Source: an uncultured bacterium (GTDB lineage: Bacteria; Chlamydiota; Chlamydiia; Chlamydiales; SM23-39). Taken from it: DNA of 64,000 nucleotides. Shown here in pieces: positions 1 to 17,002 of the stretch. How positions within the stretch are numbered: the first letter of the stretch is position 1; the number at the start of each line of letters is the position of its first letter. The stretch lies in NCBI GenBank assembly GCA_963716985.1, contig OY970323.1, positions 1,457,942 to 1,521,941 of the forward strand. Direction: 5' to 3'. A program made the translations under genes and the position numbers. The notes beneath the pieces are model-generated. The model was not told the origin of the DNA. It worked only from the letters and a program-made list of their open reading frames with translations, and did no database searches.

Positions 1-1216
1 TCTCAAGGAGATTAGACTCACCCATTGCATTCCCCTGTTCTGTAATATCTAAACAACGAATCATCTGCTTGATAAACAAACGGATCTCACTTAAAGCGCC
101 CATCTCTTCCTGCTTTTCACACATGCTGGCAATGAGATCATTAGGCACAGAGCGTTCTGCGCTCCAACGGTAAGAGATTTCATGAATTTTTCTTAAAGAC
201 ACCCCCAAATCCACCAGCTCTTGCCGCCTCAATGGGGTCTTGTGCAAGTCCACCAAAGTACTACGGTAATTCAAATCGTCGGAATCTCCAACCGTACGCA
301 CCCGACTCCACAAGGCATCATAAGATTTAAACCCTTTTTCCGATAACAGCACATCGGGGATCAGGGAAAAGAAAAGCTGCAAATACTGGGCATGCTCTGT
401 ATTATCCATTAACAACCGAACATTTTCGTACGCTGCATTTCGAATGGAAGCTCCTTGCGCAAGTACGGTCTCCAACTCATCAAGAAACAAGATAAGCCCT
501 TTATGGTTGGCCATTTTAAGGAAAACGATCAGAGACTGCAAAAATTGCTTACTATTTGTTTTATTGAGCAGTTCAAAGATATGAAACCTCTTGAGGTCTT
601 TCTTAGCGACTTTTTTTCCTTCAAACCATTGGTATAATACTTCTTCGGGGGCCTCCATTTCGGGGGCCTCCATTTCACTTTCACTTTTTTCGTCAGAAGG
701 TGAAGAATGGACTTGCAACAGCCCAATAAGTGCATTGGCAAAGTCAATCCCCAAACCCGGGATTTCACGCAATGAAGTAGAAAGCGCCCCAAGATCTTGT
801 TCGTCTATTTTTTGTTCCTTGATCCAATGTTTGATCGCGGCTCGAATCCCTACTCCCTCAAAATTGCCGCGCAGTTGTGATACAATCTCTTGGTACACAA
901 CTTCGAATTTGTGAATCGGGACATCCCGTGTCAAAACGACAAAAGAAGAGGCAAATTTTTTTTGAAGAGCAAGTTGCTGAATAACGGACATAAAGTGCGT
1001 TTTTCCATCCCCGTAATCTCCGTTGATAAAACGAACCTTTCCTCCTCCATTCGCAATAAAACAATCCAAATCCTCTTCAACAAATTGTAACCAATTTTGG
1101 CGTCCTACAGTGAAAAATGAAACATATTCTGTGGGGACAATTCCTTTTCTTAATCCTTCTATGATCGCTCTTGCTTGAAAAGGTTTGAGTTGTTCGATAT
1201 CTTCTCGCGTAATCAT
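1..1216 (-). CDS. P-loop ATPase of the DUF2791 / BREX BrxD / Shango SngB type; 3' end runs off the window
   Basis: Not in the ORF track because it has no stop in the window. Hand translation from ATG at 1216 (RBS AAAGGA upstream) is open to the edge: MITREDIEQLKPFQARAIIEGLRKGIVP...; Walker A GDYGDGKT, Walker B LILFLDELE, then AYENVRLLMDN. Confidence 0.75.
   Translation of the reverse strand, partial: MITREDIEQLKPFQARAIIEGLRKGIVPTEYVSFFTVGRQNWLQFVEEDLDCFIANGGGKVRFINGDYGDGKTHFMSVIQQLALQKKFASSFVVLTRDVPIHKFEVVYQEIVSQLRGNFEGVGIRAAIKHWIKEQKIDEQDLGALSTSLREIPGLGIDFANALIGLLQVHSSPSDEKSESEMEAPEMEAPEEVLYQWFEGKKVAKKDLKRFHIFELLNKTNSKQFLQSLIVFLKMANHKGLILFLDELETVLAQGASIRNAAYENVRLLMDNTEHAQYLQLFFSLIPDVLLSEKGFKSYDALWSRVRTVGDSDDLNYRSTLVDLHKTPLRRQELVDLGVSLRKIHEISYRWSAERSVPNDLIASMCEKQEEMGALSEIRLFIKQMIRCLDITEQGNAMGESNLLE
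644..673. repeat. Perfect 15-bp tandem duplication (TTCGGGGGCCTCCAT x2) encoding MEAPE-MEAPE in the ATPase
   Basis: Read directly; in frame. Confidence 0.9.
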
Positions 1217-1592
1217 AGCTTATGATCCTTTAATTTTTTACAAATAATACGTGTGTGATTTGTCGTTTTTCACCGCCTTGATCAATCAACCAAAACGATT
1301 TTCCTCGTCCGGAATTCAATCTAATGCGGTACCCACCTTCTGCAGCAGGCACAGGAGACTTGAAAAATCGCCAAAGATCTACGGCAAACTGCTCTATGGA
1401 GTATCCTTTAAATTTCCCTTTATCCATACTTTGAAAAAATGCCTTGCTTTGCAGCGACCATACATAGTCAGTATAAAATTGGTGAATGGGCACCGCATCG
1501 CTCGCTCCACGACCTTCTTTTTTTAAAATCTCTTTGTAACACTGTAATAATGAATCAATAAACGTTTGTGGCTCAAATGCAGTGTCATAAAG

Positions 1593-2977
1593 CTGATCCT
1601 TATACACAAGTCAACATCCACAACCTAAAAGCGCTCCCATTAACATGTCTTGCAATCGTTTATAACCCTTCCAAATTGTTTGCCACCCAGGCTCCCCATC
1701 TGATTTGCGCCCTATAAAACCCCCCATACGAGCCAGAGAACGCCAGAAATCTTTCACCGTTTTCAATTTCACCATCAGATGCCTTTCTATGAGCGTAATC
1801 CAAGGCTTGGGCACTTTTTCCTCGACCGGTGTTTCCGGAGACAACCGACATCGTTCTCTCATCGATAAAAGTTGCGTCGCTATCACCCCAATCATTCCAA
1901 ATAGTGCAAGAATTCGGCTCGCCTGTTTAAGCTGATTATCTTCGATTCGAAAGCCCGTTTTGACCGCCTTATGATAATCCTCTATAAGCCAGCGTCGGCG
2001 GTAGATTCTGACGATTCTTAGGGAGTCTTCTTGATTGTTGACAGGAAGATTCGTAACCAATAGCCATTCTAACCTGGGCCTATCGGGACACCACACTCGA
2101 ATATACGTCACTTCTTCACCTGCTGAACCCCCATTTCCTGGAGGAAACAATTTCGCTTTGACCCAAGTTATTTCCAGTGTCACTTCACCACCAAATTCTT
2201 CGCCTTTTGCTTTCACATACAGCGTGGATGTACACTTGGCTGTCTGTTGACGAATCCATGAAAAAAGACGTGTCTTCTCGCCATCAATCTCGACTTTGCG
2301 ATCATGTCGCGCCCGCACTACACATTTCCACCCCAGCCTATTTGCATTATTCAAAAAATCATAAATATCATTGGCGCGATCGCCAACGCTCACCCAGTTC
2401 TCCTGGGGACGTCCCATTTTCTCTAACGTCCTCAGCCACACCTCAGATTCTTTCGAATCACTCGCCGATTTTTCTTCGGGACGCACCCAAGCCTCCTGGT
2501 AACCAAGTCCCAAAATTTCGGTTTCTTCAGATTCATGATATTTGGCGACCAGGCATGAGTGAAACATGAGTCCATTTCCGTTACTGTCCGCGGTTGGTCC
2601 AAGTCCATGTGTCCATGGATGGGAATTGAACAAAAGCTCTGAACCATCTTGAATAAATAGAACAAGCTGTTCCGACCAGCGCGCCTTTTCTAAGACTTGA
2701 TCGTAATGGGGTTGTTGAAGCGCCTGATGTGTAATTTTAGGATTATTAAAAAAGCGGTAAGTTCCCTGGAGATCTGCCCATTTATCAAAGCGTCCTGCCA
2801 GGGACTCTTCAGGATGTTCTGCGCAACCTATAGCAACGTCAACGGCCCTCTTTTGCAGGCGGGCATCTCCTACATCGATAGTAGAAAATTGTTCATAAAT
2901 CCATTGTTCTTTCATGATACCGCTCCTTTTAAAAAAGGAACAGTATACTAAATTTTAGACTTGTGTGTAAGGATCAG
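1593..2977 (-). mobile_element. IS4-family (IS50/Tn5-like) insertion sequence, 1385 bp
   Basis: 20-bp TIRs CTGATCCTTATACACAAGTC / CTGATCCTTACACACAAGTC (1 mismatch). 9-bp TSD GTCATAAAG at 1584-1592 and 2978-2986. Confidence 0.95.
1611..2915 (-). CDS. IS4/IS50-type DDE transposase, 434 aa
   Basis: Motifs IQDGSEL, VGDRANDIYDF and the YREK signature YRRRWLIEDYHKAVKTG. Confidence 0.93.
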   Translation of the reverse strand: MKEQWIYEQFSTIDVGDARLQKRAVDVAIGCAEHPEESLAGRFDKWADLQGTYRFFNNPKITHQALQQPHYDQVLEKARWSEQLVLFIQDGSELLFNSHPWTHGLGPTADSNGNGLMFHSCLVAKYHESEETEILGLGYQEAWVRPEEKSASDSKESEVWLRTLEKMGRPQENWVSVGDRANDIYDFLNNANRLGWKCVVRARHDRKVEIDGEKTRLFSWIRQQTAKCTSTLYVKAKGEEFGGEVTLEITWVKAKLFPPGNGGSAGEEVTYIRVWCPDRPRLEWLLVTNLPVNNQEDSLRIVRIYRRRWLIEDYHKAVKTGFRIEDNQLKQASRILALFGMIGVIATQLLSMRERCRLSPETPVEEKVPKPWITLIERHLMVKLKTVKDFWRSLARMGGFIGRKSDGEPGWQTIWKGYKRLQDMLMGALLGCGC

Positions 2978-3450
2978 GTCATAAAGATTACGTTTTAATT
3001 TAACAGCTATTGAAATAATCCGTTTTGGATCCATCGACCTTAGAGTGATCTGATTGATGGTTGTACTTCTGGTTGAGAAATCCAAGGATCCTTCGATTCC
3101 TTTTAATACGGAAAATCGCGGAAAATCCACTTCCAAAGGAAGGCCGGCTTCCTGTGCTAGCTGGAGCAAAGTGTCTTTAAATTTTACCCGATAATTATCT
3201 ACCTGAGTCTCTGCAAATTTTCGCAGTTGGTTAAAAATAGAGTCGCATGATTGAAAGTGAGAATCTTCCAGAACGTCATGAACCTGCTTGCTTCTTAAAA
3301 GTTCGTCTAGTTGAAAAAAATCATTTTTTTCAATGCATCGGACGCATTTTGCTAGAAAATCAGATTTTTTTTGACGCTGATTTTGCTCTTGTTGATAGGG
3401 TTTGATGATTCCTTGCAATTGGTCTTTAAAACATTCTACTTCTTTCGGCT

Positions 3451-3743
3451 CTAACTGTTCCATGAAAAGGCTCTCTTTTTTAAGGTTTCGGTTATGCTGA
3501 GAGTTTGTAGCTGTTGTTCTGCTTTTTCTGCATCGATGAAGCCGACTAGCCACGCGCGGACGTCGTTCGAATCAGATGGCGTTTGCTCTAATGAAGGACT
3601 CGGGCTTGACGCCGCCTCAATCAGATCGTGCACACGCAAAAAGTCTGTCAAGCGACCGGGGCCGGACAACGCAATTCGTCCATTTCTTTGTCAGCCAGAC
3701 AGTGGTCGACAACTTGAAACTCATCATATTGATATTCGCTCAT
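3451..3743 (-). pseudogene. Internally deleted, frameshifted remnant of a conserved hypothetical gene (N-terminus MSEYQYDEFQVVDHCLADKEMDELR)
   Basis: ATG at 3743. After ~26 codons a frame change leads to LTDFLRVHDLIEAAS...VRAWL. It resembles a widespread MSEYQYYEF-start family from memory only. Confidence 0.45.
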
Positions 3744-4011
3744 AAAAAATCTCATTTTTATGGAAAAAAAATTATAGCGAGAAGGATGATTTCAATCCAT
3801 AGCCATTTTCATCATTTCCGCATTCGCTACCCAATTGTTGCGCTCAAGCCGCTTTGTTTTTTTCGAAAAACCTCTGAGCTGCTGTAGTGCCATCCCCTTG
3901 ACGAGCCACGAAAGAGTTCCTTCAATGACAATTCTTTGGTTGTTGTCCCTGCTCGCTGCAAATCCTGAATAAGCACCGGATCGTTTTTGGCATGTTGAAA
4001 ACTTCTTCATG

Positions 4012-5325
4012 CTAAAAATCCTTTACTTGGAAAAGAGCCGCCTCTTTTTCGAGAAAAGACGGGATCTCAATGTGCAAGAGGACGTGATTTTCCTCATCGT
4101 AATCGCAGGAGATCACCCTGCCTTGGCTCATGAGTTGGGATACGAGGGCATAATGGCTCTGGGGTATTTTGAGCTTCACCTCTTTTCGCAAAAGCGAAAT
4201 CTCCTCAATCATGAGCGCAAAAAGCTGATCAAACCCCTCTTTTGTCAAAGCAGAAATTTCGATCGTTTTTGGATAGTGAAGACGAAAAAAAAGAAGAGAT
4301 GTTCGATCCACACAAAGATCCACCTTGTTGAGGCAGGTAATGATCGGACGGTCTTTCATGGGGCCCAGCTCGGATAAGACCTTCATGGTCGATTCGGCCT
4401 GCTCCTTTGCTTGGCGGTGGCTCACGTCAATGAGATGGATCAAAATATCTGCTTCAAGAGCCTCTTCCAAAGTGCTTTTAAAAGCCGCCACAAGAGAATG
4501 GGGAATCTTTTGAATAAAACCCACCGTATCGATGAGGAGGATTTCCTGCTTATTGGGAAGAGAAAATTTACGCGTCGTGGTATCAAGCGTTGCAAAAAGC
4601 TTGTTCTCCACTAAGACATCTGCGTGGGTGAGAGCATTTAAAAGAGTGGATTTTCCCACATTGGTATAGCCAATGATTGCGAATGTAGGAATCTGCTGTC
4701 TTTTGCGCTTGCTTTTTTGCACCTCTCGATGCTTTTTGACCTCTTCGAGCTCTTTTTGAAGCTCGGCAATTTTTCTCTTCACAATGCGCTTGTCAATTTC
4801 AATCTGCTTCTCGCCCTCTCCTTTGAGCTGCCCGCCCTTCCCTCCTCCCGTTTTCTGACGACTCAAGTGAGTCCAAAGCCTCGTCAGTCGAGGAAGCTGA
4901 TACCGGCACTGGGCAAGCTCTACCTGGATCTTGGCCTCTCGCGTTCGGGCCCTTTGGGCAAAAACACCCAGGATCAGCTCCGTTCGATCGATCACCGACC
5001 TGCCCAAAATTTTTTCCAAATTGCGCTGCTGGTGGGGATAAATCTCCTCGTCAAAAATCACGACATCGGCCAAAAGCTCTTCGCCAAAAGATCCGATCTC
5101 TTTGCATTTTCCTTTGCCAAGATAGGTGGAAGATTCAAAATGATGGAGAGGGACCGGAATTTTTTTCACCACTTCCAGACCATAGGTATCGCAAAGAGCT
5201 GCGAGCTCATGCAAACTCTCTTCGCAAACCTCTTTTTCTTTCGAAGAGAAAAAAACCCCCACCAGAATGGCCCTGTTTTTCTTTTCGTCGAGATGATGGA
5301 GGCGCCCCTTTGGACTTTTCGTCAT
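4012..5325 (-). CDS. hflX: Ribosome-splitting GTPase HflX
   Basis: GYTNVGKSTLLN, LFATLDTTTR, DTVGFI, NKVD motifs. Confidence 0.96.
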   Translation of the reverse strand: MTKSPKGRLHHLDEKKNRAILVGVFFSSKEKEVCEESLHELAALCDTYGLEVVKKIPVPLHHFESSTYLGKGKCKEIGSFGEELLADVVIFDEEIYPHQQRNLEKILGRSVIDRTELILGVFAQRARTREAKIQVELAQCRYQLPRLTRLWTHLSRQKTGGGKGGQLKGEGEKQIEIDKRIVKRKIAELQKELEEVKKHREVQKSKRKRQQIPTFAIIGYTNVGKSTLLNALTHADVLVENKLFATLDTTTRKFSLPNKQEILLIDTVGFIQKIPHSLVAAFKSTLEEALEADILIHLIDVSHRQAKEQAESTMKVLSELGPMKDRPIITCLNKVDLCVDRTSLLFFRLHYPKTIEISALTKEGFDQLFALMIEEISLLRKEVKLKIPQSHYALVSQLMSQGRVISCDYDEENHVLLHIEIPSFLEKEAALFQVKDF

Positions 5326-5328
5326 AGA

Positions 5329-6102
5329 TCACTCATAGGTAAAAGAAAGTTCTAACCCATCATAGGCCAAAAAATACCGCTCAGGTAGAGCCTTGCTTAG
5401 CGCATCATGATCAATCTCATGCGAAAGATGGGTAAAATAGACCTTTTTAGCGCCCACTTTTTTTGCAATATGCATCATCTCTTCAAGGCCCAAATGCTGC
5501 GCTGTTGTCTGATGACGAAGAACGCTCAATACAAGCGTATCGACACCGGTTAAATGCTCAATCATTTTTTCTTCATATTGGCCCATGTCGGTCAGATAGG
5601 CAAAATCCCCGATTCGATATCCCGTCACCTGCACCTCCCCTTGATAATAGGTAAGATAGGAAAGATCTACCCCCTCAAATCGAACATCCCCAAACTTCCC
5701 CTTCGTTTCCCTCAAGTCAAAATAGGGAGCTGCATGCTTCCCCTTGAATAGGTAGAGAAAGCGCCGCATCACCTCTTTTTTCGTTTTTCGAGAAAGAAGA
5801 CAGGGCAAGCTTTTTTGATGCGCGTAATAAAGAGACCTCATCTCCTCTAATCCCGCAATGTGGTCTGCATGAAGATGGGTCAAGAGAATTCCGTCGAGCC
5901 GATCGATCGAAAATTTTAATGCCTGCGCGCGAAAATCAGGGCCCGCATCGATCAGAAATTGTTGCTCTTGAAGCCTGAGAAGTCCCGATGAGCGCAGCCG
6001 TTTGTTATGAGGGGAAGAAGAGGTGCATACTGAGCATTTGCACGCAAGAAGAGGAACGCCAAGAGAAGACCCCGTTCCCAAAAATAAAAAACGCCCTTTC
6101 AT
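5329..6102 (-). CDS. MBL-fold metallo-hydrolase (PhnP-like)
   Basis: FLGTGSSLGVP, IDAGPD, THLHADH. Start moved to MKGRF at 6102, which forms a TGATG overlap with the upstream gene. Confidence 0.88.
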   Translation of the reverse strand: MKGRFLFLGTGSSLGVPLLACKCSVCTSSSPHNKRLRSSGLLRLQEQQFLIDAGPDFRAQALKFSIDRLDGILLTHLHADHIAGLEEMRSLYYAHQKSLPCLLSRKTKKEVMRRFLYLFKGKHAAPYFDLRETKGKFGDVRFEGVDLSYLTYYQGEVQVTGYRIGDFAYLTDMGQYEEKMIEHLTGVDTLVLSVLRHQTTAQHLGLEEMMHIAKKVGAKKVYFTHLSHEIDHDALSKALPERYFLAYDGLELSFTYE

Positions 6103-6923
6103 CAAGATTCTTTTCGTTTGATTTCGAGAAGATTGTAACTCTCCGCTGCAAAGTTGAAAAAGAAAACAATTGCAGGGGTTAAACAGGCGCAAAAAGGAAG
6201 CATGATAAAAAACCATTGCAAGGCCAATGACAGGGTTGCCTGCGCAACAAGATAATGAAGTTCGGTCAAAATCGCCGCCAAAGAAAGGAGCCCTACGACA
6301 AACGCAGTTGGGAAAACAGCGACAACAAAGAAAAGCAGATTCGAAAAGAGCCTGGTGCGAAATCTTCGAATCAACCCTAAATCAAAATGCAATTTTTCCA
6401 CGGGCCTCAAACCAACGGCCGGACTGACAAAGAAAAGCAAAAAGAGGTTCACTAAAACCAGCAAAAGAGAGCTCAAAATGATCAAAAAGGGAGCAAAGGT
6501 CACAATCACTCCTATAAAAGGTCCGATTTGAGGAATTTCTTTTAAAAAAACAAAAATGCCGAAAATGACCCATAAAAAAAGATAGATCAAAATGGGGGGG
6601 ACCGAAAGGTAGGATGTGCCGATGATCAATCGCCAAGAATGTTTTAAAATTTCCCGATACCTTCCTTTCAACCCTTTGACCTCATGGTAATAAATGCGAA
6701 TCAAAAAAACACCTAAGGAAAGGAGGATTCCCGAAGAGAGAAAAATCGGCAAAAAAATGAGGCTCATTGCCACCCAGCCCATGGCATCCAAAGCAAGGGC
6801 CCTGCAAAAGACAACAAGGATCCCGCAAAGAACTAAAACAGGAAAGACAAGAAATAGTTTTTTTCTCGAAAAAGAAAGAAAGAAAGCACGGTTAAAGCAG
6901 GTTTCTAAATCGTCCCATCGCAT
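6102..6923 (-). CDS. Polytopic membrane protein, 273 aa, unknown function
   Basis: About six hydrophobic segments; translationally coupled to the MBL gene. Confidence 0.75.
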   Translation of the reverse strand: MRWDDLETCFNRAFFLSFSRKKLFLVFPVLVLCGILVVFCRALALDAMGWVAMSLIFLPIFLSSGILLSLGVFLIRIYYHEVKGLKGRYREILKHSWRLIIGTSYLSVPPILIYLFLWVIFGIFVFLKEIPQIGPFIGVIVTFAPFLIILSSLLLVLVNLFLLFFVSPAVGLRPVEKLHFDLGLIRRFRTRLFSNLLFFVVAVFPTAFVVGLLSLAAILTELHYLVAQATLSLALQWFFIMLPFCACLTPAIVFFFNFAAESYNLLEIKRKES

Positions 6924-7004
6924 AAAGGCGCCTCGTGGTCTTAAAACAATTTGAAGATACTCCTCTCATGAGGAAAAGACAATGAGAAAAATCGATCGAT
7001 CGCT

Positions 7005-7508
7005 TTATCTTTTTACTTCTCGTATCTTCCCCAAAAAACAAAAAAACTTTCCTAAAAATATTCCCGAGATCGTTCCCGAAATCAAAAGATCGCTGCCAAA
7101 AATCAACAAGCGATCTTTTGCGCCCACTGCCACAGCGTGCAGATATCCAAAAGAATATTTTGATAGAAAAAGCAAAAGGGACAAAACAAGAACCGACCAT
7201 GTTCCCGGAATGGTGATGCGTTTTTTCTGACGGTCGATCGCGAGATGAAGCGGCCGGTGGAGCTTCCAGCCGATCGACGTTCCCAAAGCGATGGCAAAAA
7301 GCCAAACGCTCAACGTAGAAAAGGAAATGCCATATTTCTCAAGCAAATATCCAAAAGACCAGGTAAGAAAAAGGAAGGGAAGCAAAAGCAGCCTCTGAAA
7401 AGAAACCGCCCTGGATTTTCTAGATCTGATCCCAAGATAAACGCAGCAAAGAAAGATCAAATAGACCCAGAGAGGCGTCGATTGAAAGACTGTATAAAAA
7501 TAGCGCAT
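7005..7508 (-). CDS. Small membrane protein (DUF6622/CcdC-like)
   Basis: TPLWVYLIF start, several TM segments, PGTWSVLVL motif; starts 1 nt after the preceding stop. Confidence 0.6.
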   Translation of the reverse strand: MRYFYTVFQSTPLWVYLIFLCCVYLGIRSRKSRAVSFQRLLLLPFLFLTWSFGYLLEKYGISFSTLSVWLFAIALGTSIGWKLHRPLHLAIDRQKKRITIPGTWSVLVLSLLLFLSKYSFGYLHAVAVGAKDRLLIFGSDLLISGTISGIFLGKFFCFLGKIREVKR

Positions 7509-7509
7509 C

Positions 7510-8661
7510 TCACCTCAAGCGATAGAAATAATGGGGATGGACAAGATTCAATCGATCGCGATGGGTTGTTTCATGCAGAATTTGAATCACTATCCCCACA
7601 GATCTAGCCATGGCAAATAGCAACGGATAATAGCGGGCTTGGGTAAATCCGACCGCCTGCAACAAGGCTCCCGATATCGCATGCACGTTGGCAAACGGGC
7701 GGGAGATGTTGGGAAAAAAAGCAGATAAAACTCTAGGAGCTTCATAGCGCAAATGAAGAGCGATTTTGACCAGAGGATGGTCGGAATAATGATTCCTTGC
7801 AAAATGATAAAGAAGAGTCGCCCTTGTGTCTTCCACGCAAAGAGAGGGATGTCCAAAACCATAAAGCAGTTCTTTTTTTTCGAGCTTTGCAATCAAAATC
7901 CTTTCAACATCCTCCCTCGCCAAGACGCCCTGCGTCTGTTCTTCAATCTGCTGGAGTAGGTCCAGCCCTCCGAGACAGGAAGATCCCGCAAGATTCCCTG
8001 AAAATGCAACCATTGCAGCAGATAGGCTTTTATAAAGATCCACATGGGCGGAAGCAACGCTCTTGCCCACAAAAGCATCGATCGCGCCTCCTTCATCATC
8101 ATAAAAAAGAATTTGCAATAGCGGAAAAAGTTCTGAAAACTTTTCTTTTTGTTTGGAAGAAAGCGGAAGCATTTCGATAAAATTTTCAAGAACGCCAAGA
8201 TCATTTTGCATTTCCGATAACGCAGACCCACCCTCATACAAATGGACCAAGTGAGCAATGATTTGGGGAAGTTTTGCAATGATGTTCAAGCAGTCTTCTT
8301 TAGGGTCATTTTTGTTTTCGAAAGAGCCAAGCAGCAGCAGGGCCATAGAAAAAGAAGAAAGAGGGTCCACCCTTGTCGTTAATTTTTTCAATTCCGTCAA
8401 AAACTCTTCGGACAAAGCCGCCCTCTTTTCGATTTCTGCTGCAAAAAAACGCGCTTCTGCTTCGCTCGGCTCCCGCCCATGCAAAAGAAGATAAACCACT
8501 TCCATAGGATTTCGTAAAATGAGCTCAAAAAGAGATCTTCCCACATAGAACACGCCTTTTTCGGGATCGACGTAAGAAGTAGAAGAATATCCCACCGGGA
8601 TATCTCTTAATCCTTTTTGCAGATGCTCCTTGGTAATCTCGAAGATCACGCTATCTCTCAT
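7510..8661 (-). CDS. Citrate-synthase-fold protein with degenerate active site
   Basis: Overall citrate synthase layout (STSYVDPEKG, YGFGH, VEDTR, NVxAISG, FAMARSVG), but key catalytic motifs are altered. Confidence 0.8.
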   Translation of the reverse strand: MRDSVIFEITKEHLQKGLRDIPVGYSSTSYVDPEKGVFYVGRSLFELILRNPMEVVYLLLHGREPSEAEARFFAAEIEKRAALSEEFLTELKKLTTRVDPLSSFSMALLLLGSFENKNDPKEDCLNIIAKLPQIIAHLVHLYEGGSALSEMQNDLGVLENFIEMLPLSSKQKEKFSELFPLLQILFYDDEGGAIDAFVGKSVASAHVDLYKSLSAAMVAFSGNLAGSSCLGGLDLLQQIEEQTQGVLAREDVERILIAKLEKKELLYGFGHPSLCVEDTRATLLYHFARNHYSDHPLVKIALHLRYEAPRVLSAFFPNISRPFANVHAISGALLQAVGFTQARYYPLLFAMARSVGIVIQILHETTHRDRLNLVHPHYFYRLR

Positions 8662-8721
8662 ACGCAGACTCCCTGTTTTACTTCTTAAATAATGCTTTAG
8701 AAAAAAATTGTCGATTGAATT

Positions 8722-9843
8722 TTAGATTTGATCGGAGAAGATTTTTTGACGGACCTCTTTCATAAGATCGACCATGGAGTGCAAGTTATGAAGAGTTGCT
8801 AAAGTAAATGCTGCAAGTTCTCTTGCTTTGAAAAGATGGTGCAGATAGGCGCGGGTATAATGCCGGCATGTCCAACAAGTGCATCCCTCATCTATCGGGC
8901 GAAAACAGGTCGCGTTTTCTTTTTTAAGAATTTTGATATTTTCTTTTTTGGAAAGCAAAAGGCCATGGCGCGCTGCTTTTGTGGGATAGGAGCTGTCGAA
9001 GGTATCGATTCCGAGCGGTACGATCTGTTGCAACGATTGGAGGTCTCCGATCCCCAGCAGATGGCGCGATTTTTCTTCCGGGATATGCAGGAGCGTCGCT
9101 TGCAGCATGTGACACATTTCTTCTTTACTTTTCCCGACGCTTCCTCCCACTGCATAGCCATCAAAGCCAAGAGAGGTTAAAATCCGACAGCTTTCTTTGC
9201 GAAGATCGGGGTCTACTCCCCCATGAATGACTCCCCAGATCTGTTGATGTCTCGGATCTTTTTGATGAGCTTCCAATGAACGGCCCTCCCAACGATGGGT
9301 CCTTGCAAAGGATTTTTGAAGATTTTCTTTTGGCATATGATAGGGAGGAAGCTCGTCGAATGGAATGATGATGTCGGCGCCGAGCTTTTTTTGCGCTTCA
9401 ATCGACGTCTCCGGCGTTAAAAAAATCTTGGACCCATCGCGATAGGAGCGAAAGAGAACACCCTCCTCGTTGATCTTTAAAACGAGCGTTTCGCTCTTCT
9501 TTTTTCCCGAACTTTTCAACTCTTCCGCAACAGAGCCGTAAGCTAAAGAAAAAACCTGAAATCCCCCTGAGTCCGTAATGATGGGAAGATCGCGCTTCAT
9601 AAAACCATGAAGGCCGCCTGCCTTCTCTATCACGTCAACACCCGGTTGTAAAAGAAGATGGTAGGTGTTGCAAAAAAGCAGCTGCAGGCCGATGTCCGTT
9701 ACCATTTGCGTATCGAGAGCTTTGATCGTGCCATTGGTTCCGACCGCCACAAAATTGGGAGTCTCGATAATCCCATGCGCCGTATGGATCCTTCCGACTC
9801 GTGCTTTGGAGATTTTCGATCGATGAAGAATTTCAAAGTTCAT
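8722..9843 (-). CDS. tgt: tRNA-guanine transglycosylase (chlamydial queuine-inserting type)
   Basis: CNTYHL, TDSGGFQVFSL, DTFDSSYPT, CxCxxC...H zinc site. Start moved to MNFEILH at 9843. Confidence 0.95.
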   Translation of the reverse strand: MNFEILHRSKISKARVGRIHTAHGIIETPNFVAVGTNGTIKALDTQMVTDIGLQLLFCNTYHLLLQPGVDVIEKAGGLHGFMKRDLPIITDSGGFQVFSLAYGSVAEELKSSGKKKSETLVLKINEEGVLFRSYRDGSKIFLTPETSIEAQKKLGADIIIPFDELPPYHMPKENLQKSFARTHRWEGRSLEAHQKDPRHQQIWGVIHGGVDPDLRKESCRILTSLGFDGYAVGGSVGKSKEEMCHMLQATLLHIPEEKSRHLLGIGDLQSLQQIVPLGIDTFDSSYPTKAARHGLLLSKKENIKILKKENATCFRPIDEGCTCWTCRHYTRAYLHHLFKARELAAFTLATLHNLHSMVDLMKEVRQKIFSDQI

Positions 9844-10504
9844 CTTGCGCCTGCCCGATGAAAGATTGCGCAAAGGGAAGAAAAAGAGCATATAAAATAA
9901 TCACAATCGCCTTGATGGCAAAGCTTATGACGATCACATCCAGAACAGAGGCCACCACCTTCCAAAGGCCCAAGACCGTAAACAAAACGGTATCGAGCAG
10001 CTGCGAACAAAGAAGAGAACTATTCATCCGAAGGAAAAAGTTTTTTTCTTTTCGCTTTTTCAAATAGCCGTACAACCAGCCGTCGAATCTTTGTACCACA
10101 TAAAAAACACACAAAGAGGCCATGACAATCCTCGGCGTTGCGGAAAAAATTTTGGAAAAAGCGAGATGGGTCTCGTCAAAAGAATTAGGAAGATAGAAAA
10201 CATGCATCTTGCTCATGCAGAGAAAAAAAAAGAGAGAAAAAAAGGAAAGGGCAATGGCCCTTTGCATCGCCTTGGCTCCGTAAATTTCTCGTATCAGATT
10301 GAGGCCCAAAAGAGCTCCCACAGCATAGACGTCGCTGCAGGTGACGTCTAATCCAAAAAGATGCATTTGTTTGACAAGGAAAAGGTTGGCAAAAAGAACC
10401 TGCAGCGCGACAAATAAATAAAGGGCATGGATCCCTCTTTTCAAAGAGAGCCATAAAAAACCCAGCACAAAAAAAAGATGTAAAAAGAAGATGCACTCGT
10501 TCAT
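9833..10504 (-). CDS. yhhQ: Queuosine-precursor transporter (YhhQ/VUT family)
   Basis: ANLFLVKQ, SDVYAVG, SQLLDTVLF; overlaps the tgt start. Start moved to MNECIFF at 10504. Confidence 0.85.
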   Translation of the reverse strand: MNECIFFLHLFFVLGFLWLSLKRGIHALYLFVALQVLFANLFLVKQMHLFGLDVTCSDVYAVGALLGLNLIREIYGAKAMQRAIALSFFSLFFFLCMSKMHVFYLPNSFDETHLAFSKIFSATPRIVMASLCVFYVVQRFDGWLYGYLKKRKEKNFFLRMNSSLLCSQLLDTVLFTVLGLWKVVASVLDVIVISFAIKAIVIILYALFLPFAQSFIGQAQDEL

Positions 10505-11098
10505 AAAACACTCATTAAGAATAACATCTTCTAGCTTATCTCGAAAGAAATAAAAAGAGAAAAACGGCCGGAGAAAATTCCTCTCCAACCGTTTTGAATA
10601 ATCGTTATGATCTGACGAACAGCCCCTCCATTCCGCCATTTGTGAAAAAAATATTCGAAAACTCCGCATTGTTTGGGGTTGGCGCTCGAGAAGGAGCTAT
10701 CTGCAGGAGAGGAGAAATGCTCGGAGCGCGAATGGACTGCTTCATCCAAAGCCCCCCCTCGCGCTCTTGAAGAGGGCCAGAAAATAAGCGTGTAGGAGTG
10801 TCAGAGAGTCTCCACCGGATCTTCTTCATTCTTGAAAAAAAAAGGAGAGGGACAAACATAGGGAGGAGGAACAAAACATCTACAAGCAAAGCAATAACGC
10901 TCGAGAGGAAAAGAGCATTTTTTTTCTAACCCTCAGGTAATGCTCCCTTCCGCCAAGGAGATGATGGGTGAAAAGCTGCACGATGGATTGACATAGAAAC
11001 AAACTTTTAATTTTTTATGATCATACATTTTAAACATTTCCATTCAATCTATTCACCAACTTTTCAAAACATCTCCTTTGAAGCCTACACAGATTCCT

Positions 11099-11665
11099 TC
11101 ATACTAAGCTATGTAGCTTTTTGCACGATGGCCAAACAGAACTTCCAAACTCATCTAAAACAGCCCCTGAAACTTCACTTGTGGGTTCATCGCAGCGCTC
11201 TCTTTTTTTGCTTTCTAAGCTTTCGGCCTTTGTCCCAATTTCCACATGCTGTTGTTTTTTGCATGCTGGCCAATCAAAACTTTCAACCTCAGCTGAAACG
11301 GCCTTTGAAACTTCACTTGCGGATTCACCATCTAATATCAACGGAGTAAAGGATCGAGTTGGGGGAGAACTTACTTTAAGACCAAGACATTCAAAGCACA
11401 CTGTTATTTTTTCAACCTCATCCTCCTGATCTTCTTCATCAGAATCTGGTTCCGTCTCTTTACGACACTCTGTTTCCTTCGCTCCAGGAACAAGAGCAGA
11501 CATCTCCACAATGTCTCTTCTCGAAAGAAACAAGCACGACGAGGGTTGAGGATTAAGAGGACGAGCACGATTTAAGAGAGAAGCGCAATTCTCTTTTTCT
11601 TTTTGAACTTGTGGAGCTTCTCCAACGCTCCTAAAAGGGCTCAGCCCATGGATTTTAAAACTCAT
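11099..11665 (-). CDS. Low-complexity hypothetical protein with an internal imperfect repeat; candidate secreted effector
   Basis: RBS-like AAGGTGG before ATG at 11665; acidic stretch; repeat SEVSKAV...WPACKK / SEVSGAV...WPSCKK. Confidence 0.6.
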   Translation of the reverse strand: MSFKIHGLSPFRSVGEAPQVQKEKENCASLLNRARPLNPQPSSCLFLSRRDIVEMSALVPGAKETECRKETEPDSDEEDQEDEVEKITVCFECLGLKVSSPPTRSFTPLILDGESASEVSKAVSAEVESFDWPACKKQQHVEIGTKAESLESKKRERCDEPTSEVSGAVLDEFGSSVWPSCKKLHSLV

Positions 11666-11817: not shown

Positions 11818-13038
11818 TTAACTTTGGAAGTCTGAAAAAAATGCAGTCGCTGACTCCCCAAGTTTTTCCCTGATCCGCTCGATTAAGGCTCGAGCAAATC
11901 GTCGGGACAGACTGTCCCAAGTAGTAACCCTATCGTCCACTTTCTTCAAGGAGCCTCTCAGAAGAGGATAGACCTCATCTTTCTCCGCCTCTTCCTCTCT
12001 AAAATCGATCAGAACCACCGCTCCATCCTCTCGAACCCGAAGATTGTCAGGCTGTAGATCCAGCGCCATGTCCTTCTGGGCCGCCTGAACAAAAATATTA
12101 GCAATACTCTCGACATAGGGTTCTATTTGCTCTTTTTGTTCGGTGGTAAAAGGTTGCTCTTGATTTCCCGTGATAAAAGGAAGTTTTTCCTGAATAGAAA
12201 AAGGAACATACTCCTCTTTGAAATAACCCTCTTCCAAAGGGTCGTTGTCAAGTTTGGCGCAAGGGATTTTAGCAGCTTCGCATTCCTCTCGTTGCTCAAG
12301 GGCATTTCGAGTCAATACTTGCAGGTTTTCTGTAAGAGTGCATTCAGGTTTATAAACTTTTATTACATGTGGCCCCTGCCGAAAAACATCTTTGTAATGA
12401 CCTCTAGAACTTAGAGAAATTAACTCATCTTTCAAGACGCGCTCCCTAGCTTCACAATAAAGTTTATTCCTCTGCGTCATCGCCGCGCTGGTGCGACGTT
12501 TCACGGGAGTTGGAGGACAAAGAGGTCCGCAAGCGCCAGAAAGAGCAGCTCGATCCATTCTCTCATCATCATCAAACCCATCTAGTGAAGGCATAGGTAG
12601 TGCTCGACGCTTGGGTGTTCCGGAAACAGCACGTGGCGCCGCAGGAGGAGTATGAGCCGCATCATCTACCTCCATACCCACAAACCCTTCAAGTGATGGT
12701 AGAGGCATGCGGCTGGGCGAAATAACAACTCCTGCTTGTTGTGCAGACGCAGCCGCCTTGGCCGCAGGAGAAGTAAAAGATTGCACCACTTTTGTAGGAG
12801 TTGCGGAAGATGCTGCAACCTGTTTCGTTCGTCTACGCAAAGGGGGAGAAGAGGGTTGTGGAGGAAAACTCCCTTTCCCCGCAAATCCTGTGGGGGAAAA
12901 AGGTGACAGAGAAACACCCACCTTCTGAGCGGTCTCTTCAGAAACTGATTTGCCCTTTCCTTTTTTGACAGGACGTTTCGGTGTTAAATCTTGTGGTGAC
13001 CCCAGTAAAGCATCGGCAACCGCGCCTATCCATTGCAT
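11818..13038 (-). CDS. 406-aa protein: disordered N-terminus plus C-terminal protein-kinase-like domain
   Basis: SRGHYKDVF loop, VIKV lysine, DLQPDN catalytic loop, LIDF. Confidence 0.7.
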   Translation of the reverse strand: MQWIGAVADALLGSPQDLTPKRPVKKGKGKSVSEETAQKVGVSLSPFSPTGFAGKGSFPPQPSSPPLRRRTKQVAASSATPTKVVQSFTSPAAKAAASAQQAGVVISPSRMPLPSLEGFVGMEVDDAAHTPPAAPRAVSGTPKRRALPMPSLDGFDDDERMDRAALSGACGPLCPPTPVKRRTSAAMTQRNKLYCEARERVLKDELISLSSRGHYKDVFRQGPHVIKVYKPECTLTENLQVLTRNALEQREECEAAKIPCAKLDNDPLEEGYFKEEYVPFSIQEKLPFITGNQEQPFTTEQKEQIEPYVESIANIFVQAAQKDMALDLQPDNLRVREDGAVVLIDFREEEAEKDEVYPLLRGSLKKVDDRVTTWDSLSRRFARALIERIREKLGESATAFFSDFQS

Positions 13039-13264
13039 AAAAAAACCCCATTTTTAAAAAATTATTTAATTAATTATAATATTTTAAAACATTTTCTTCA
13101 AGTTTATTCGCTTTTTATGTTCAAAAAATAAATTGTTGTTAAAATAATGTTTTACAACAAAAAAAAATTTTAATTTTCAAGTCCCCGGAGAAAAACAGGC
13201 TGAAAAACAGCAATTTTTTGAGAAAAAACCGAGGCATTTTACTCTAAAAAAAGAAAAAAACAAT

Positions 13265-15199
13265 CTATTTACCCAACGAAATATTTTCGATCGCAATTGG
13301 CTCGACCATTTCGGGAAGAGCAAGTGCGAAAATTTGGGAATAAAAATACTCTTCTGCCTCAAGACAACGTTTCATGTTCGCAGCATCGCAAAAACCATGC
13401 CCTTCATGATCAAAGAGAAGAAAAGCAGTGGCAATCCCTCTTTTCTTCAAAGACTCGAACATCTTTTGGGATTGCGCAGGAGGAACAATTTTATCTTCAG
13501 ACCCCTGGAAAAAAAGGATCGGGGCAGAAATCTTCTGCGTGAAATTGATGGGAGAGAGCTGTTCATAAAGATCTTTTTTTTCCGGATAGGGGCCCACCAG
13601 TCGATCGCCATAATGGGATTCGAATTTATGGGTCTCTTTGACAAGAGCTTCCAAATCGCTTACCCCATAGTAACTCACACCCGCTTGAAAAACGTCAAAA
13701 AAGGCAAGAGCTGCGAGAACCGTATATCCTCCGGCACTTCCCCCTTTAATGATCAGACGCCTTTCATCAACCAGGCCTTTGTTCGCTAAATAGCGGGCCA
13801 CAGCAATGCAGTCTTCTGCACTATACAACATGTGTCCAAAAATCTTTTCTCTGAACTGACGGCCATATCCCGTGCTTCCGCGATAATTCACATCCACCAC
13901 GGCAAATCCGCGATTGGTCCAAAACTGCACCCCTAAGCTCAATAAGGGGAAAACTTGCGCAGTGGGCCCGCCATGTGCGAGAACGATCAAAGGAGGCTTT
14001 TCTCCTTTTAATGGCTTTTGAGAGGAATTTTTTGGGGGATAATAAAAGCCGTAAGCAATCTCCTCTCCGCTGATTTCAAATTCGATCTGTTGGGGAATCG
14101 ATATTTCTTTCCTATCCAACTGCAGCTTTTTGGACTGTTTTAAAACTTTGAAGGTTTCCTCTTTTACATCCATCTGGACAATCGAAGGAAAGTCTACCGG
14201 AGAGGCGGCGATGAAAAAGGCGTGCTCGCTATCCGCAATCAGGCTGCTAAAATAGGTGAACGGTGTTTTGATTTTCCTATACGCATGAGACTCTACATCC
14301 AAAAGCAACAAATGGCCGATCCCCTTTTGGATATAGGAGCAAAGAATTTGATATCCTTTTTCTTTTGGGATCAAAGCATAAGTAGAAAGTCCATCGATCC
14401 ATTGAGGAACACCAAATTCCGCCTCAAAGGAAAGCATGGGCTCTATTTTCTTGTCCTGATAGCAATACAGATTCCAAAAACCGCTGATTTCATAGACAAA
14501 AAAGAGTTTTCCGTCAGGCGCCCACTGGGGTTGAAAAACCGAAGAGCCCCCTTCTCCCGCAACCACTTCTCCATCTCCCAATGAACCATCCTCTTTGATT
14601 GGACAAAGGGTCAGCTGCGCCCCATCCCATGGCATATTGGGATGGTCCCAACAGAGATAGGCCAGTTCAGATCCATTAGGACTTAGAGAAAGAGATGCGT
14701 AAAAATCTCTGCCTTGAGCCAACGCCTTTTTTTCTCTTGTCCGAAGATCGATGCTCACGATCGAATGGCGGCGCTCCCCCTTACCCTCTTCTTGGACGCA
14801 GATCAAACGATTTCTTTTTTGATCAAAGAGAATAGCTCCATAGCGAACGCTCTCTTTGTCAGTGAGGCGATGGATTTTTCTTTTAGAATCGATCCTGTAA
14901 ATACACTGGTCATTTTGATTGCAGAAGAAAATCAGGTCACCTGCAAGACAATAGGACTTTCCTCCATATTCATTGATTTTTGTTCGTGCGCTATAAGAAT
15001 CCGGCAAAAGATCCTCCTGCCCTTTCCCCGAAAGGGCAACTAGCATCACTTGCCCCTTTTTTGAAGGGTTCATCTCTTCAAAAAAAAGCTTGTTTCCGTG
15101 CAAAGAAAGATGGTTGAGACGAAGGTTATCTTCCACCACGATTTCAGAAGAAATTTTTGAAGCCCATGAGCCCGCCGGGGCTTCGCTCAGCTCAATCAT
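13265..15199 (-). CDS. S9 family peptidase (dipeptidyl aminopeptidase / acylaminoacyl peptidase)
   Basis: HGGPT, GGSAGG nucleophile motif, QGSEDKIVP, EGHGF. Confidence 0.92.
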   Translation of the reverse strand: MIELSEAPAGSWASKISSEIVVEDNLRLNHLSLHGNKLFFEEMNPSKKGQVMLVALSGKGQEDLLPDSYSARTKINEYGGKSYCLAGDLIFFCNQNDQCIYRIDSKRKIHRLTDKESVRYGAILFDQKRNRLICVQEEGKGERRHSIVSIDLRTREKKALAQGRDFYASLSLSPNGSELAYLCWDHPNMPWDGAQLTLCPIKEDGSLGDGEVVAGEGGSSVFQPQWAPDGKLFFVYEISGFWNLYCYQDKKIEPMLSFEAEFGVPQWIDGLSTYALIPKEKGYQILCSYIQKGIGHLLLLDVESHAYRKIKTPFTYFSSLIADSEHAFFIAASPVDFPSIVQMDVKEETFKVLKQSKKLQLDRKEISIPQQIEFEISGEEIAYGFYYPPKNSSQKPLKGEKPPLIVLAHGGPTAQVFPLLSLGVQFWTNRGFAVVDVNYRGSTGYGRQFREKIFGHMLYSAEDCIAVARYLANKGLVDERRLIIKGGSAGGYTVLAALAFFDVFQAGVSYYGVSDLEALVKETHKFESHYGDRLVGPYPEKKDLYEQLSPINFTQKISAPILFFQGSEDKIVPPAQSQKMFESLKKRGIATAFLLFDHEGHGFCDAANMKRCLEAEEYFYSQIFALALPEMVEPIAIENISLGK

Positions 15200-15247
15200 G
15201 AAAAACTCCTAAAAAAAAATTTAATATCTTAAAAAAATAAAAACTTC

Positions 15248-17002
15248 GCAAGTGCTCATAAAACTGAGGTAAAAAACTTTAAGTTTCTTTGAGCCGCGAG
15301 GGAGCTCGCGACACGATTACTTGCGACAACCTGGGAATTTTACACAACCCGTTGATTCTGTCTTCAAGATATCCGAAAAAAGTGATTCCAAGCTTACAGC
15401 AAGTCTTTTTTAGGCTTACAAAAGTATCTCGACATTTTTGACCTTCTTCACTACGAGTCCCTCCGGATACTTTCCGCTTAACCACCATCTCTCGAGCATC
15501 GGTTTCGGTTCCATTATTGTGAAGGGGGGTGTCTGGTTTCTCTAATACCCTGAGCAATTCGTCCTTTTTTTCATAAGTTTTTGCCAGCTGTTTGTTTAGG
15601 GTGGGACTGATGGTTTTCTTTTTTGAGAATAAATTGTCAAAATTCTGCTCGAGAATCAATTTTAGGCTTTCAGAGGGCGCGAGTTTGTATTCCTGCAGCC
15701 CCTTGTATAAATCCCAAATTTCTCCCCGGACTTGCTCGATTGCTTTGCGTGTTGCTTCGTCAAAGGGAATGAGTTTTCGATAATGCCTCTCCTCATGGAT
15801 CCAACATAAAGATCGAACGAAGACATTGAATTGCCCTGCATCATCTCCATGCACTCCAAGATCTCTTGGTATGCCATTTTCTATCAGGCTCGCGAATAGG
15901 GCGGCCTCGGTTACAAGTTTTATGTCGCTTTCTGACTTGATGTTTATTGCGAGTAAAAATTTCTCCCATTCTATTTGATTCATGGATCGATATCGGGCCT
16001 GCAAAAGGAGGTATCCTCCTAACCAACTCGAGGGTTTTAGGGTCTCAATGTAGTCTGCAGTGTCTTCATTGATAAGATATCGAGGAGCCGTCCCATGCAA
16101 TATCTTGAGAAAATTTATGCGACTTTTGCTTTCTGTCGACACAATGTAGGTAAAATATTCGTTCCCTATGATCGTCGAGTAGCCATTATGCCCTCGGTGG
16201 CGAGCGCCGGTGTCGTCTACTTTTACTTGTCCTGTAGCTGCTATCCCCGCGGACAATAGCTCGTTCTTTTCCTGATGGAAGGCTTCCTTTCCTTGGATCA
16301 AAATATTGCTCAACTGTCCTTCGGAGATCAATACGCCAATTTCTTTCAACTGTGCAAACAGCAGAGGTTCTGTAATACGACAGCCATAATATTGGTGCAA
16401 AACGTAGCTGATCAATTGAGGGCCATAATGTCCCTGGATATTTTGCGGCAATTTACCTGTTAAGTAAGTGCCATCAGGCAATTGCCATCGCTCGAGTTCG
16501 TATATGGTATTGTAAGGCTGAAGAATGATGTCCTGTACGGTAAATTTCTGACATCCTTTGAAGGTAGCTCCTTCGGGAACTGATTCGGGCTTAATGCGAC
16601 TTCTGGTATGTATCTCAAGTTTTTTGGTTTTTTTACGTCGAGGATGCATCCCCCTGGAGAGTTTATTTTTGTCGTTTTGCTTATCTTTGCTTTGTTGCCC
16701 CTCTAAAGTGCTGGGAGGAATCTTTGGACGGGGCTTTTGTCCCTTGAGAATTGCAATCTCATCTTTTAGTCGTTGGATTTCTTCGTGCTGAAATGAAATG
16801 GTGTTCAAAGCAATGTCGAGGCGATCTCTTAGGCGTCGATCTTCTTCAGCGAGCTGGGTATTTTGCTCTAAAATTCGTTGAATGAGGTCATTGTTATTCT
16901 GCATAAGCAAGTAAATTTACGATGACGAACGATTAAAGAAAAGATTTATATTTTTTTAGGATCTAAGAATGAGGTATTTACCTCAACTTTTTGAGCACTT
17001 GC
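15248..17002 (-). mobile_element. IS66-family single-ORF IS, copy 1, 1755 bp
   Basis: TIRs GCAAGTGCTCA...GAGGTAAA (23/26). 8-bp TSD AAAACTTC at 15240-15247 and 17003-17010. Confidence 0.93.
15279..16910 (-). CDS. IS66-family transposase, 543 aa
   Basis: N-terminal coiled coil; DDTGARH, LCWIHEERH, LHNNGTETDAR...KRKVSGGTRS. Confidence 0.9.
   Translation of the reverse strand: MLMQNNNDLIQRILEQNTQLAEEDRRLRDRLDIALNTISFQHEEIQRLKDEIAILKGQKPRPKIPPSTLEGQQSKDKQNDKNKLSRGMHPRRKKTKKLEIHTRSRIKPESVPEGATFKGCQKFTVQDIILQPYNTIYELERWQLPDGTYLTGKLPQNIQGHYGPQLISYVLHQYYGCRITEPLLFAQLKEIGVLISEGQLSNILIQGKEAFHQEKNELLSAGIAATGQVKVDDTGARHRGHNGYSTIIGNEYFTYIVSTESKSRINFLKILHGTAPRYLINEDTADYIETLKPSSWLGGYLLLQARYRSMNQIEWEKFLLAINIKSESDIKLVTEAALFASLIENGIPRDLGVHGDDAGQFNVFVRSLCWIHEERHYRKLIPFDEATRKAIEQVRGEIWDLYKGLQEYKLAPSESLKLILEQNFDNLFSKKKTISPTLNKQLAKTYEKKDELLRVLEKPDTPLHNNGTETDAREMVVKRKVSGGTRSEEGQKCRDTFVSLKKTCCKLGITFFGYLEDRINGLCKIPRLSQVIVSRAPSRLKET

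Follow-up and report, generated by a model that had tools for sequence, protein, structure and literature searches.

What is the operon that enters this stretch of DNA at its left edge, and is it still in working order? The window, by which we mean the whole 64,000-nucleotide (nt) stretch of contig OY970323.1 from an uncultured member of the Chlamydiota, opens within an unannotated gene for an ATPase, and just upstream of it on the same strand lies a second gene, encoding an unknown protein of 279 amino acids (aa), which has been cut in two by an insertion sequence (IS). A reading made from the letters alone (hereafter the sequence-only reading) took the pair for an uncharacterised variant defence operon that is now decaying. 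Having compared the pair with related loci in other genomes, we give a probability of roughly 0.6 to the view that the two genes belong to an unnamed four-gene ATPase-plus-helicase defence module, a relative of the Shango and BREX (bacteriophage exclusion) type 2 modules, which was horizontally acquired and has been inactivated here by the IS. The gene content, the kinship and the decay suggested by the sequence-only reading are borne out below, and its anti-phage role is what we infer by analogy with those systems; the four-gene unit with its giant helicase, and a wider family of BrxD-like ATPase pairs marked by the 279-aa protein, both go beyond that reading.

The interrupted lead gene and its insertion sequence

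We call the broken gene, which stands first in the operon, the lead gene and the ATPase that follows it ATPase A. The features concerned, in coordinates of the window, are these.

2-1216, minus strand: ATPase A, a BrxD-like ORC/Cdc6-type AAA+ ATPase and gene 2 of the cassette; 405 of its 428 codons lie in the window and it continues past the left edge.
1217-1229, minus strand: spacer of 13 nt between the lead-gene stop and the start of ATPase A.
1230-1592, minus strand: 3' part of the lead gene, codons 160-279 plus the stop, encoding a complete C-terminal domain that is winged-helix-like in the predicted model.
1584-1592: left copy of the target-site duplication, GTCATAAAG, equal to codons L160-Y161-D162 of the lead gene.
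1593-2977, minus strand: IS50-like (IS4-family) insertion sequence of 1,385 base pairs (bp), with 20-nt terminal inverted repeats and a 434-aa transposase open reading frame (ORF).
1611-2915, minus strand: the transposase ORF, 434 aa, the sole ORF of the IS, with Tn5-type domains.
2978-2986: right copy of the target-site duplication, GTCATAAAG.
2987-3463, minus strand: 5' part of the lead gene, codons 1-159, modelled as a long helical hairpin and a small beta domain.
3307-3310: CTAG at codons 52/53 of the lead gene, uninterrupted in the window; the site of a different, 1,977-bp IS in contigs L064 and L069.

When the flanks of the IS are joined and one copy of the duplication is left out, a single open frame of 279 codons is obtained on the minus strand (3463 to 2987, then 1592 to 1233, with the stop at 1232-1230), and the perfect reconstitution that the sequence-only reading had claimed is thus confirmed. 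That reading was also right in placing the ATPase ORF closely downstream, the gap being 13 nt and not 14 as it had stated; a spacer of the same 13 nt is found in intact homologues (L002, 10852 to 10866; L004, 10840 to 10854). In the broken gene, the frame of the 5' piece runs on across the duplication, takes in 9 codons of the IS and ends at a stop codon (2948-2950), and a GTG at 1607, inside the IS end, opens a possible 125-aa fusion ORF that contains the whole C-terminal domain.

The IS itself is IS50-like and fits the IS4 family, whose elements of this kind have a DDE transposase of the Tn5 type, inverted repeats near 19 bp at their termini (20 nt here) and a 9-bp target duplication; the sequence-only reading had correctly recognised a clean insertion. 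Its left terminal repeat, CTGATCCTTATACACAAGTC, occupies 1593-1612 and recurs as the reverse complement, with 1 mismatch, at 2958-2977, and the 9-bp duplication is direct. In Pfam the transposase matches Tnp_DNA_bind (6.7e-16), DDE_Tnp_1 (1.1e-07) and Dimer_Tnp_Tn5 (1.4e-07), that is, the DNA-binding, DDE and dimerisation domains of the Tn5 type. The terminal repeat agrees at 17 of 19 positions with the outside end of Tn5, which we take to be CTGACTCTTATACACAAGT; unlike Tn5, however, the element is a single IS without composite transposon structure and without resistance cargo. It has the same orientation as the operon. In four metagenomes from soil, peat and sediment its word depth was about 2-6 times that of its flanks, and loose ends joined it to other flanking sequences as well; on these two grounds the element is probably multicopy in the source populations. 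One metagenome contig (X3, 1396-1607) crosses the left IS junction of the window, and joints of the empty site were not seen in the Logan contigs of the four metagenomes, which are too fragmentary to show them.

Near-identical strains with an empty site

The fragment-sized homologue P0116 of the reconstituted protein led us to contig L064 (ENA, a different sample), which is 100% identical to the window over 1-1592 and 99.77% identical over 3307-11189. A further contig, L069, from Logan and another run, is likewise 100% identical to the window over 1-1592, and identity beyond this part is 99.7-99.8% for the two contigs. Both have a single CTTTATGAC and no IS at the insertion point of the window, and because such near-identical strains carry the empty site, the insertion is polymorphic and, as the sequence-only reading had supposed, recent.

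The lead gene of L064 is nevertheless broken, by the aforementioned 1,977-bp IS (L064:7883-9859) at codons 52/53. This element has inverted ends of 17-18 nt (CCCGACTTTCCTAGTTA), a CTAG duplication and a 575-aa ORF; the ORF has no match in Pfam or PADLOC and may be a transposase of a family absent from these libraries. L069 starts with the last 25 nt of the same element.

The four-gene cassette

The frame of ATPase A, which begins at 1216, has met no stop by base 2; we count 23 codons outside the window because the full protein has 428 aa in the 100%-identical L064. Its assignment to the DUF2791/BrxD type is upheld by the profiles: it matches PF10923 (BrxC_BrxD/DUF2791) over profile positions 5-405 of 414 with 182.6 bits (E 1.6e-53; the Pfam gathering score is 22.2 bits) and has a P-loop, and in PADLOC it matches BrxD at 2.9e-41 and SngB at 1.4e-30, an intact homologue reaching 1.2e-35 for SngB. 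Because its score against the NCBIfam equivalog BREX_BrxD (NF033438) is 141.7 bits, below the cut-off of 350, ATPase A is, as judged from profile scores, a member of the BrxD-like family and not BrxD proper. Its Walker A (GDYGDGKT) and Walker B (ILFLDE) motifs are both intact. An in-frame 15-nt tandem duplication (647-676) is present in its acidic linker (EMEAP-EMEAP), where the terminator scan flags a hairpin; in intact homologues the acidic stretch at this place is different and shorter.

A second DUF2791 ATPase and a helicase had been proposed as things to look for on the left of the window, and both are present in the contigs L064, L068 and L069, which are 100% identical to the left part of the window. 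ATPase B is a 379-aa PF10923 paralogue that overlaps ATPase A by 8 nt and has the Walker motifs GSYGQGKS (A) and LLFFDE (B), and it is followed by the start of a DEAD/ResIII/Helicase_C protein. The lead gene and ATPase A are thus found in the window, and ATPase B and the helicase start in L064.

The complete unit can be seen in the intact loci L002, L004 and L006, in which four co-oriented genes follow one another: the lead gene, ATPase A (~420 aa), ATPase B (~380 aa) and a protein of 1,772-1,782 aa. Residues 1-684 of this giant protein match PADLOC BrxHI (5e-94) and SngC (2.5e-78), and its C-terminal region (residues ~1370-1770) matches MkoA (3.7e-48) and Pfam AAA_11 and AAA_12. On the basis of these matches, the giant protein (~1,780 aa) would unite in one chain a BrxHI/SngC-type superfamily 2 (SF2) helicase, a putative nuclease region and an MkoA/Upf1-type superfamily 1 (SF1) helicase.

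A scan of one genome per species, covering ~185,579 species genomes, has found the cassette in 57 species-level loci, a number that is a lower bound because the scan was pattern-based. Wherever the genes are present, their order (lead gene, ATPase A, ATPase B, giant helicase) is constant, and in essentially every locus long enough the lead gene is followed by two BrxD-like ATPases, after which the ~1,780-aa helicase usually comes. Across the clade, Walker A is intact in 52 of the 53 copies of ATPase A and all 44 of ATPase B, and Walker B in 50 of 53 and 41 of 44, respectively. The ORFs are intact in most non-chlamydial loci. Some loci of Electrothrix and other Desulfobacterota show the first three genes only.

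Several loci depart from the standard arrangement. In several cable-bacterium loci only the three-gene half is seen, and L033 (Ca. Electrothrix sp. YB6) has its ATPase B in two ORFs of 194 and 204 aa (12100-13344) and no giant helicase within 7 kb. Downstream of ATPase B in another Electrothrix locus, L025, are genes for an Eco57I-type methylase, a protein with the GmrSD N-domain and a protein with a RelA/SpoT domain (6716-10410). In L040 three ORFs of matching sizes (~12574-16271) separate ATPase B from the helicase, and this insert would make a defence islet inside the cassette. In L013, a metagenome-assembled genome (MAG) of Chlamydiae, the two ATPases are followed by a helicase ORF of only 726 aa (4502-6631), corresponding to the SF2 part, which either has been truncated or represents a natural variant of the cassette with a short helicase. 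The helicase ORF of L064 and L069 stops at codon 373 (VEKW*) and is followed by sequence unlike that of intact homologues (AACCGTCTAATCTACCC...; L069:4261-4287 and the end of L064), which suggests a further break of the cassette in the sister strain.

The lead protein

For the reconstituted lead protein we have found 305 homologous proteins. The best 120 of the 305 are 61-89% identical to it (the fragment P0116 excepted), almost all of them have ~279 aa and none has a Pfam domain; across phyla, 39 positions are invariant and many others nearly so. Searches with the two pieces and with the joined form gave only noise in Pfam, PADLOC and NCBIfam, with no Pfam or PADLOC match at E <= 1, and no match below E 0.7 came from a profile search of the PDB. 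A profile of the family, in turn, found 301 clusters at 50% identity among 1.84 billion representatives, and many of the relatives so found are full-length (~265-295 aa) with E values of 1e-25 to 1e-6. When 104 distant relatives were examined, they had scattered low-level matches, and no SngA/TerB model appeared in the top-25 family tallies; a word-indexed search with the distant-relative alignment returned two proteins only. The two distant lead proteins that were compared show 23-24% identity.

Gene context could be obtained for four distant relatives, as follows.

P0251: two PF10923 genes downstream, within an island of restriction-modification (RM), Vsr, phospholipase D (PLD) and DUF87 genes; the giant helicase was not seen downstream.
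P0155: two PF10923 genes downstream.
P0143: an A-like ATPase downstream; here a BrxHI-like helicase lies upstream.
P0140: an A-like ATPase downstream.

All four are followed by a BrxD-like ATPase, and the two for which the context is longer show the ATPase pair. The constant feature is the lead gene with the BrxD-like ATPase that follows it, and the motor or effector varies. The linkage of homologues of the 279-aa protein to DUF2791-type ATPases, on which the sequence-only reading depended, therefore holds in the loci long enough to show it and in these four as well.

AlphaFold2 gave confident models for a full-length homologue (pLDDT 92.2, pTM 0.77) and for the C-terminal 120 aa encoded in the window (pLDDT 93.1, pTM 0.86). 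The modelled protein consists of a helical hairpin (residues ~2-107), a five-strand beta unit (113-143) and a helical domain that ends in a four-strand sheet (148-280). Foldseek returned no hit at E <= 0.001, either for the full model against PDB and BFVD or for the C-terminal domain against PDB. The weak structural neighbours (E 0.6-5, TM <= 0.48) are mostly winged-helix domains, namely those of ORC1, Cdc6/OCCM, Cdt1, Stn1, TubR, RctB, TFIIE and MukE/F, and the predicted C-terminal domain may be described as having a winged-helix-like topology of uncertain ancestry. We have rejected the identification of the lead protein as TerB or SngA, with no sequence match and no TerB structure among the listed Foldseek hits; the earlier impression of a partner without TerB or Pgl features agrees with both the sequence and the predicted fold.

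Upstream of the lead gene, the interval 3464-4010 between hflX and the lead gene contains a 72-aa ORF and the remnant of a frameshifted gene ('MSEYQYDEFQ...'). The last ~16 codons before the lead-gene start recur just upstream in close chlamydial relatives; apart from these, the scraps are not conserved beside the cassette in other loci, and for this reason we have rejected them as a fifth component. A promoter and terminator scan showed nothing usefully above chance. A minus-strand gene for a protein of metallo-beta-lactamase (MBL) fold lies next to hflX, at 5329-6216; the identical L064 gene matches PF23023 (Anti-Pycsar Apyc1) and Lactamase_B, and it is probably a housekeeping MBL hydrolase.

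Distribution, transfer and decay

In the 57-locus scan the cassette was found in Chlamydiota, Legionellaceae, an Acidobacteria MAG, Latescibacterota, many Desulfobacterota, a gammaproteobacterial symbiont and one 'Promethearchaeota' contig, the last of which is probably mis-binned. Its distribution is rare and patchy. In the tree of ATPase A, two Legionellaceae MAGs sit at separate, well-supported positions within a chlamydial-type clade of 100/100 support, where the Acidobacteria row is sister to Simkania; these placements indicate horizontal transfer if the bins are correct. The Latescibacterota form one clade in the tree. The 'Promethearchaeota' locus L035 is nearly identical to L032 of Thermodesulfobacteriota, and the 'Acidobacteria' MAG L017 is the one placed sister to Simkania (L014); both pairs are likely to reflect binning errors or very recent transfers. 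The flanks of the cassette differ even among Chlamydiota.

The degraded copies cluster in Chlamydiota. ATPase A, ATPase B and the helicase are shattered in L001 and L007, frameshifts are present in L015 and L060, L061 is a remnant, and the helicase ORF of L013 is the short one mentioned above; the two IS alleles of the lead gene, in the window and in L064/L069, add two more broken chlamydial copies. Decay in intracellular lineages, as the sequence-only reading had it, is supported by these copies. Since two near-identical strains have different ISs in the lead gene and related endosymbionts have shattered copies, the cassette is now being shed by this lineage.

Proposed function and alternative explanations

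Reasoning from the BrxD-BrxHI dyad of BREX type 2 and from SngB-SngC of Shango as analogues, we propose that the lead protein, through its coiled helical hairpin and its predicted winged-helix-like domain, would work in a physical complex with the A/B ATPase pair, both subunits of which are predicted to be active from their intact Walker motifs. The task of the lead protein and the ATPases would be to detect foreign or aberrant DNA and to load or license the helicase-nuclease, by which that DNA would then be degraded. The insertion of the IS50-like element at codons 160-162 of the lead gene, with its 9-bp duplication, has inactivated the system, and the copy in the window is dead.

Several observations weigh against a defence module. 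Housekeeping genes, for example those for ABC transporters, Mur ligases, S1 and RlmL, make up most of the 160 flank ORFs within 4.5 kb of the cassette, and roughly a tenth of the 160 match defence-type models, some of them generic. These flanks include 3 integrases, 2 DDE transposases, 5 AAA_14/DUF4143 proteins (PDC-S01) and 4 AAA_21 proteins, one match each to MTase_II, SspH, AbiLi, PDC-M38 and PDC-S68, and two to DpdF models; integrases adjoin the cassette in L004 and L006. Since most flanks are housekeeping genes, the association with defence and mobility genes is weak to moderate, a signal that is real but modest, and the link to defence islands drawn in the sequence-only reading stands only weakly, through neighbours such as the integrases, the RM methylase, GmrSD, SspH, AbiLi and the PDC candidates. 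No copy of the cassette was found in the plasmid and phage sequence collections. The lead protein and ATPase A keep 47-61% identity across phyla, which is atypical of fast-evolving immune sensors. The winged-helix likeness holds at the level of topology only, because the structural matches are all non-significant (E > 0.5, TM <= 0.48). The genes to the left of the window are read here from the near-identical L064 and L069, and the cassette as a whole is known to us from sequences and predicted structures.

Part of this evidence would suit a different machine, one of host DNA repair or recombination, namely a single-chain end processor of the AddAB/RecBCD or Dna2 kind with its own AAA+ loader, which endosymbionts lose by ordinary genome reduction. 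The helicase-nuclease-helicase architecture of the giant protein, the housekeeping flanks, the strong conservation across phyla and the single clade of Latescibacterota are all in keeping with it. We consider it unlikely, however, when so few of the genomes scanned have the cassette (57 of ~185,579, as a lower bound), when the Legionellaceae and Acidobacteria positions in the tree conflict with phylogeny, when the genomic context varies even within Chlamydiota and integrases or RM genes adjoin some loci, and when the closest profile matches are the defence components BrxD, SngB, BrxHI, SngC and MkoA. Another thought concerns the IS alleles and not the function: the repeated hits could reflect selection to switch off a system that is costly or self-toxic in an intracellular niche, the lead gene being the preferred target since its loss disarms the system. 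The 840-bp lead gene does carry different ISs in two near-identical strains, the helicase ORF of L064/L069 is also cut short at codon 373, and shattered copies are found in several other Chlamydiota; yet the IS50-like element is probably multicopy and evidently active, the remaining genes become neutral targets after one gene has been broken, and a statistical test would need more than two alleles, so that we hold such selection to be quite improbable.

The lead protein might also be a mere winged-helix repressor of the operon, in which case its disruption would deregulate the ATPases and the helicase rather than kill the system. Its place at the head of the operon, the winged-helix-like topology of the modelled C-terminal domain and the co-orientation of the IS, from which read-through into the ATPase gene is conceivable, would be as expected of a regulator. 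Against this, a protein of 279 aa with a helical hairpin of ~100 residues and an extra beta domain is far above the typical size of a repressor, and many of its positions are invariant or nearly so across phyla. In close homologues the ATPase gene again starts 13 nt beyond the lead-gene stop, and in distant cassettes, whose helicases differ, the lead and ATPase genes lie a few nt apart or overlap; this tight spacing in close and distant cassettes suggests that the lead protein is a stoichiometric partner of the ATPase, and a repressor seems to us very unlikely. We accordingly keep to the defence module, with the probability given at the outset.

A broader view can be put forward as a tentative one, on balance doubtful: the 279-aa family and the BrxD-like ATPase pair may form a widespread, self-contained 'licensing' triad that loads interchangeable motor-nuclease effectors onto invading DNA, a possible bacterial counterpart of ORC/Cdc6 with a Cdt1-like winged-helix adaptor. 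The effector may be the one-chain SF2-nuclease-SF1 protein here and an Lhr-like helicase elsewhere, or there may be none in view beside PLD and HerA-like genes. If true, the triad would mark out a large family of immune systems that has no name yet and would explain the roles of BrxD in BREX type 2 and of SngB in Shango, two ATPases of validated defence systems whose role is still unexplained. An intact member (e.g. L002/L016, L009 or a Desulfobacterota copy) would offer a simple system for studying the control of a defence helicase by an ORC/Cdc6-like ATPase; the copy in the window deserves attention chiefly as a record of a loss still under way.

How the cassette compares with known systems

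The literature searched on DUF2791, PF10923, SngB, BrxD/BrxHI and Shango does not describe this cassette, and the BREX-related systems reported together with the BrxD-BrxHI pairing were rejected as candidates, since they centre on DUF499 (PMC12839542). Shango consists of a TerB-like protein, an ATPase and a DEAD helicase and gives modest anti-phage protection by a mechanism that is not known (10.1101/2022.11.11.516204). The cassette shares with Shango the order of a small lead protein, a PF10923 ATPase and an SF2 helicase, and the SngB and SngC models match it at the values given above. It differs in a lead protein without SngA/TerB match by sequence or fold, in two paralogous ATPases versus one SngB, and in a helicase that is a ~1,780-aa fusion with a putative nuclease region and an SF1 helicase versus ~700 aa for SngC; the SngB/SngC matches are also weaker than those to BrxD and BrxHI.

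In BREX type 2, BrxD is an AAA+ protein of the ORC/Cdc6 type with a tight linkage to BrxHI, which it is proposed to load (PMC12839542). BrxD and BrxHI are the best profile matches of the cassette (2.9e-41 and 5e-94), and an adjacent, co-oriented ATPase-helicase pair is common to both; the cassette, however, has a duplicated ATPase and a dedicated lead protein, and its helicase is fused to a putative nuclease region and an SF1 motor. PglZ, PglX, BrxC/PglY and PglW are absent from the called genes of L002, L004, L006 and L064, and no BREX core gene is among the 25 most frequent families of the 160 flank ORFs. As judged by gene content and profile scores, the cassette is neither BREX nor Shango: not BREX because PglZ, PglX, BrxC and PglW are lacking and the score against the BrxD equivalog is under the cut-off, and not Shango because there is no TerB/SngA partner, the ATPases are two and the effector is fused.

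A further comparison is with Mokosh. The C-terminal region of the giant protein resembles the MkoA/Upf1-Dna2-like SF1 helicases, matching MkoA together with AAA_11 and AAA_12, whereas here the MkoA-like part is fused behind a BrxHI-like helicase in one chain. Compared with these known systems, the cassette is a stripped-down ATPase-helicase pairing, without methylase or PglZ, which combines a duplicated ATPase and a putative nuclease effector with a dedicated, highly conserved partner protein that databases do not describe.

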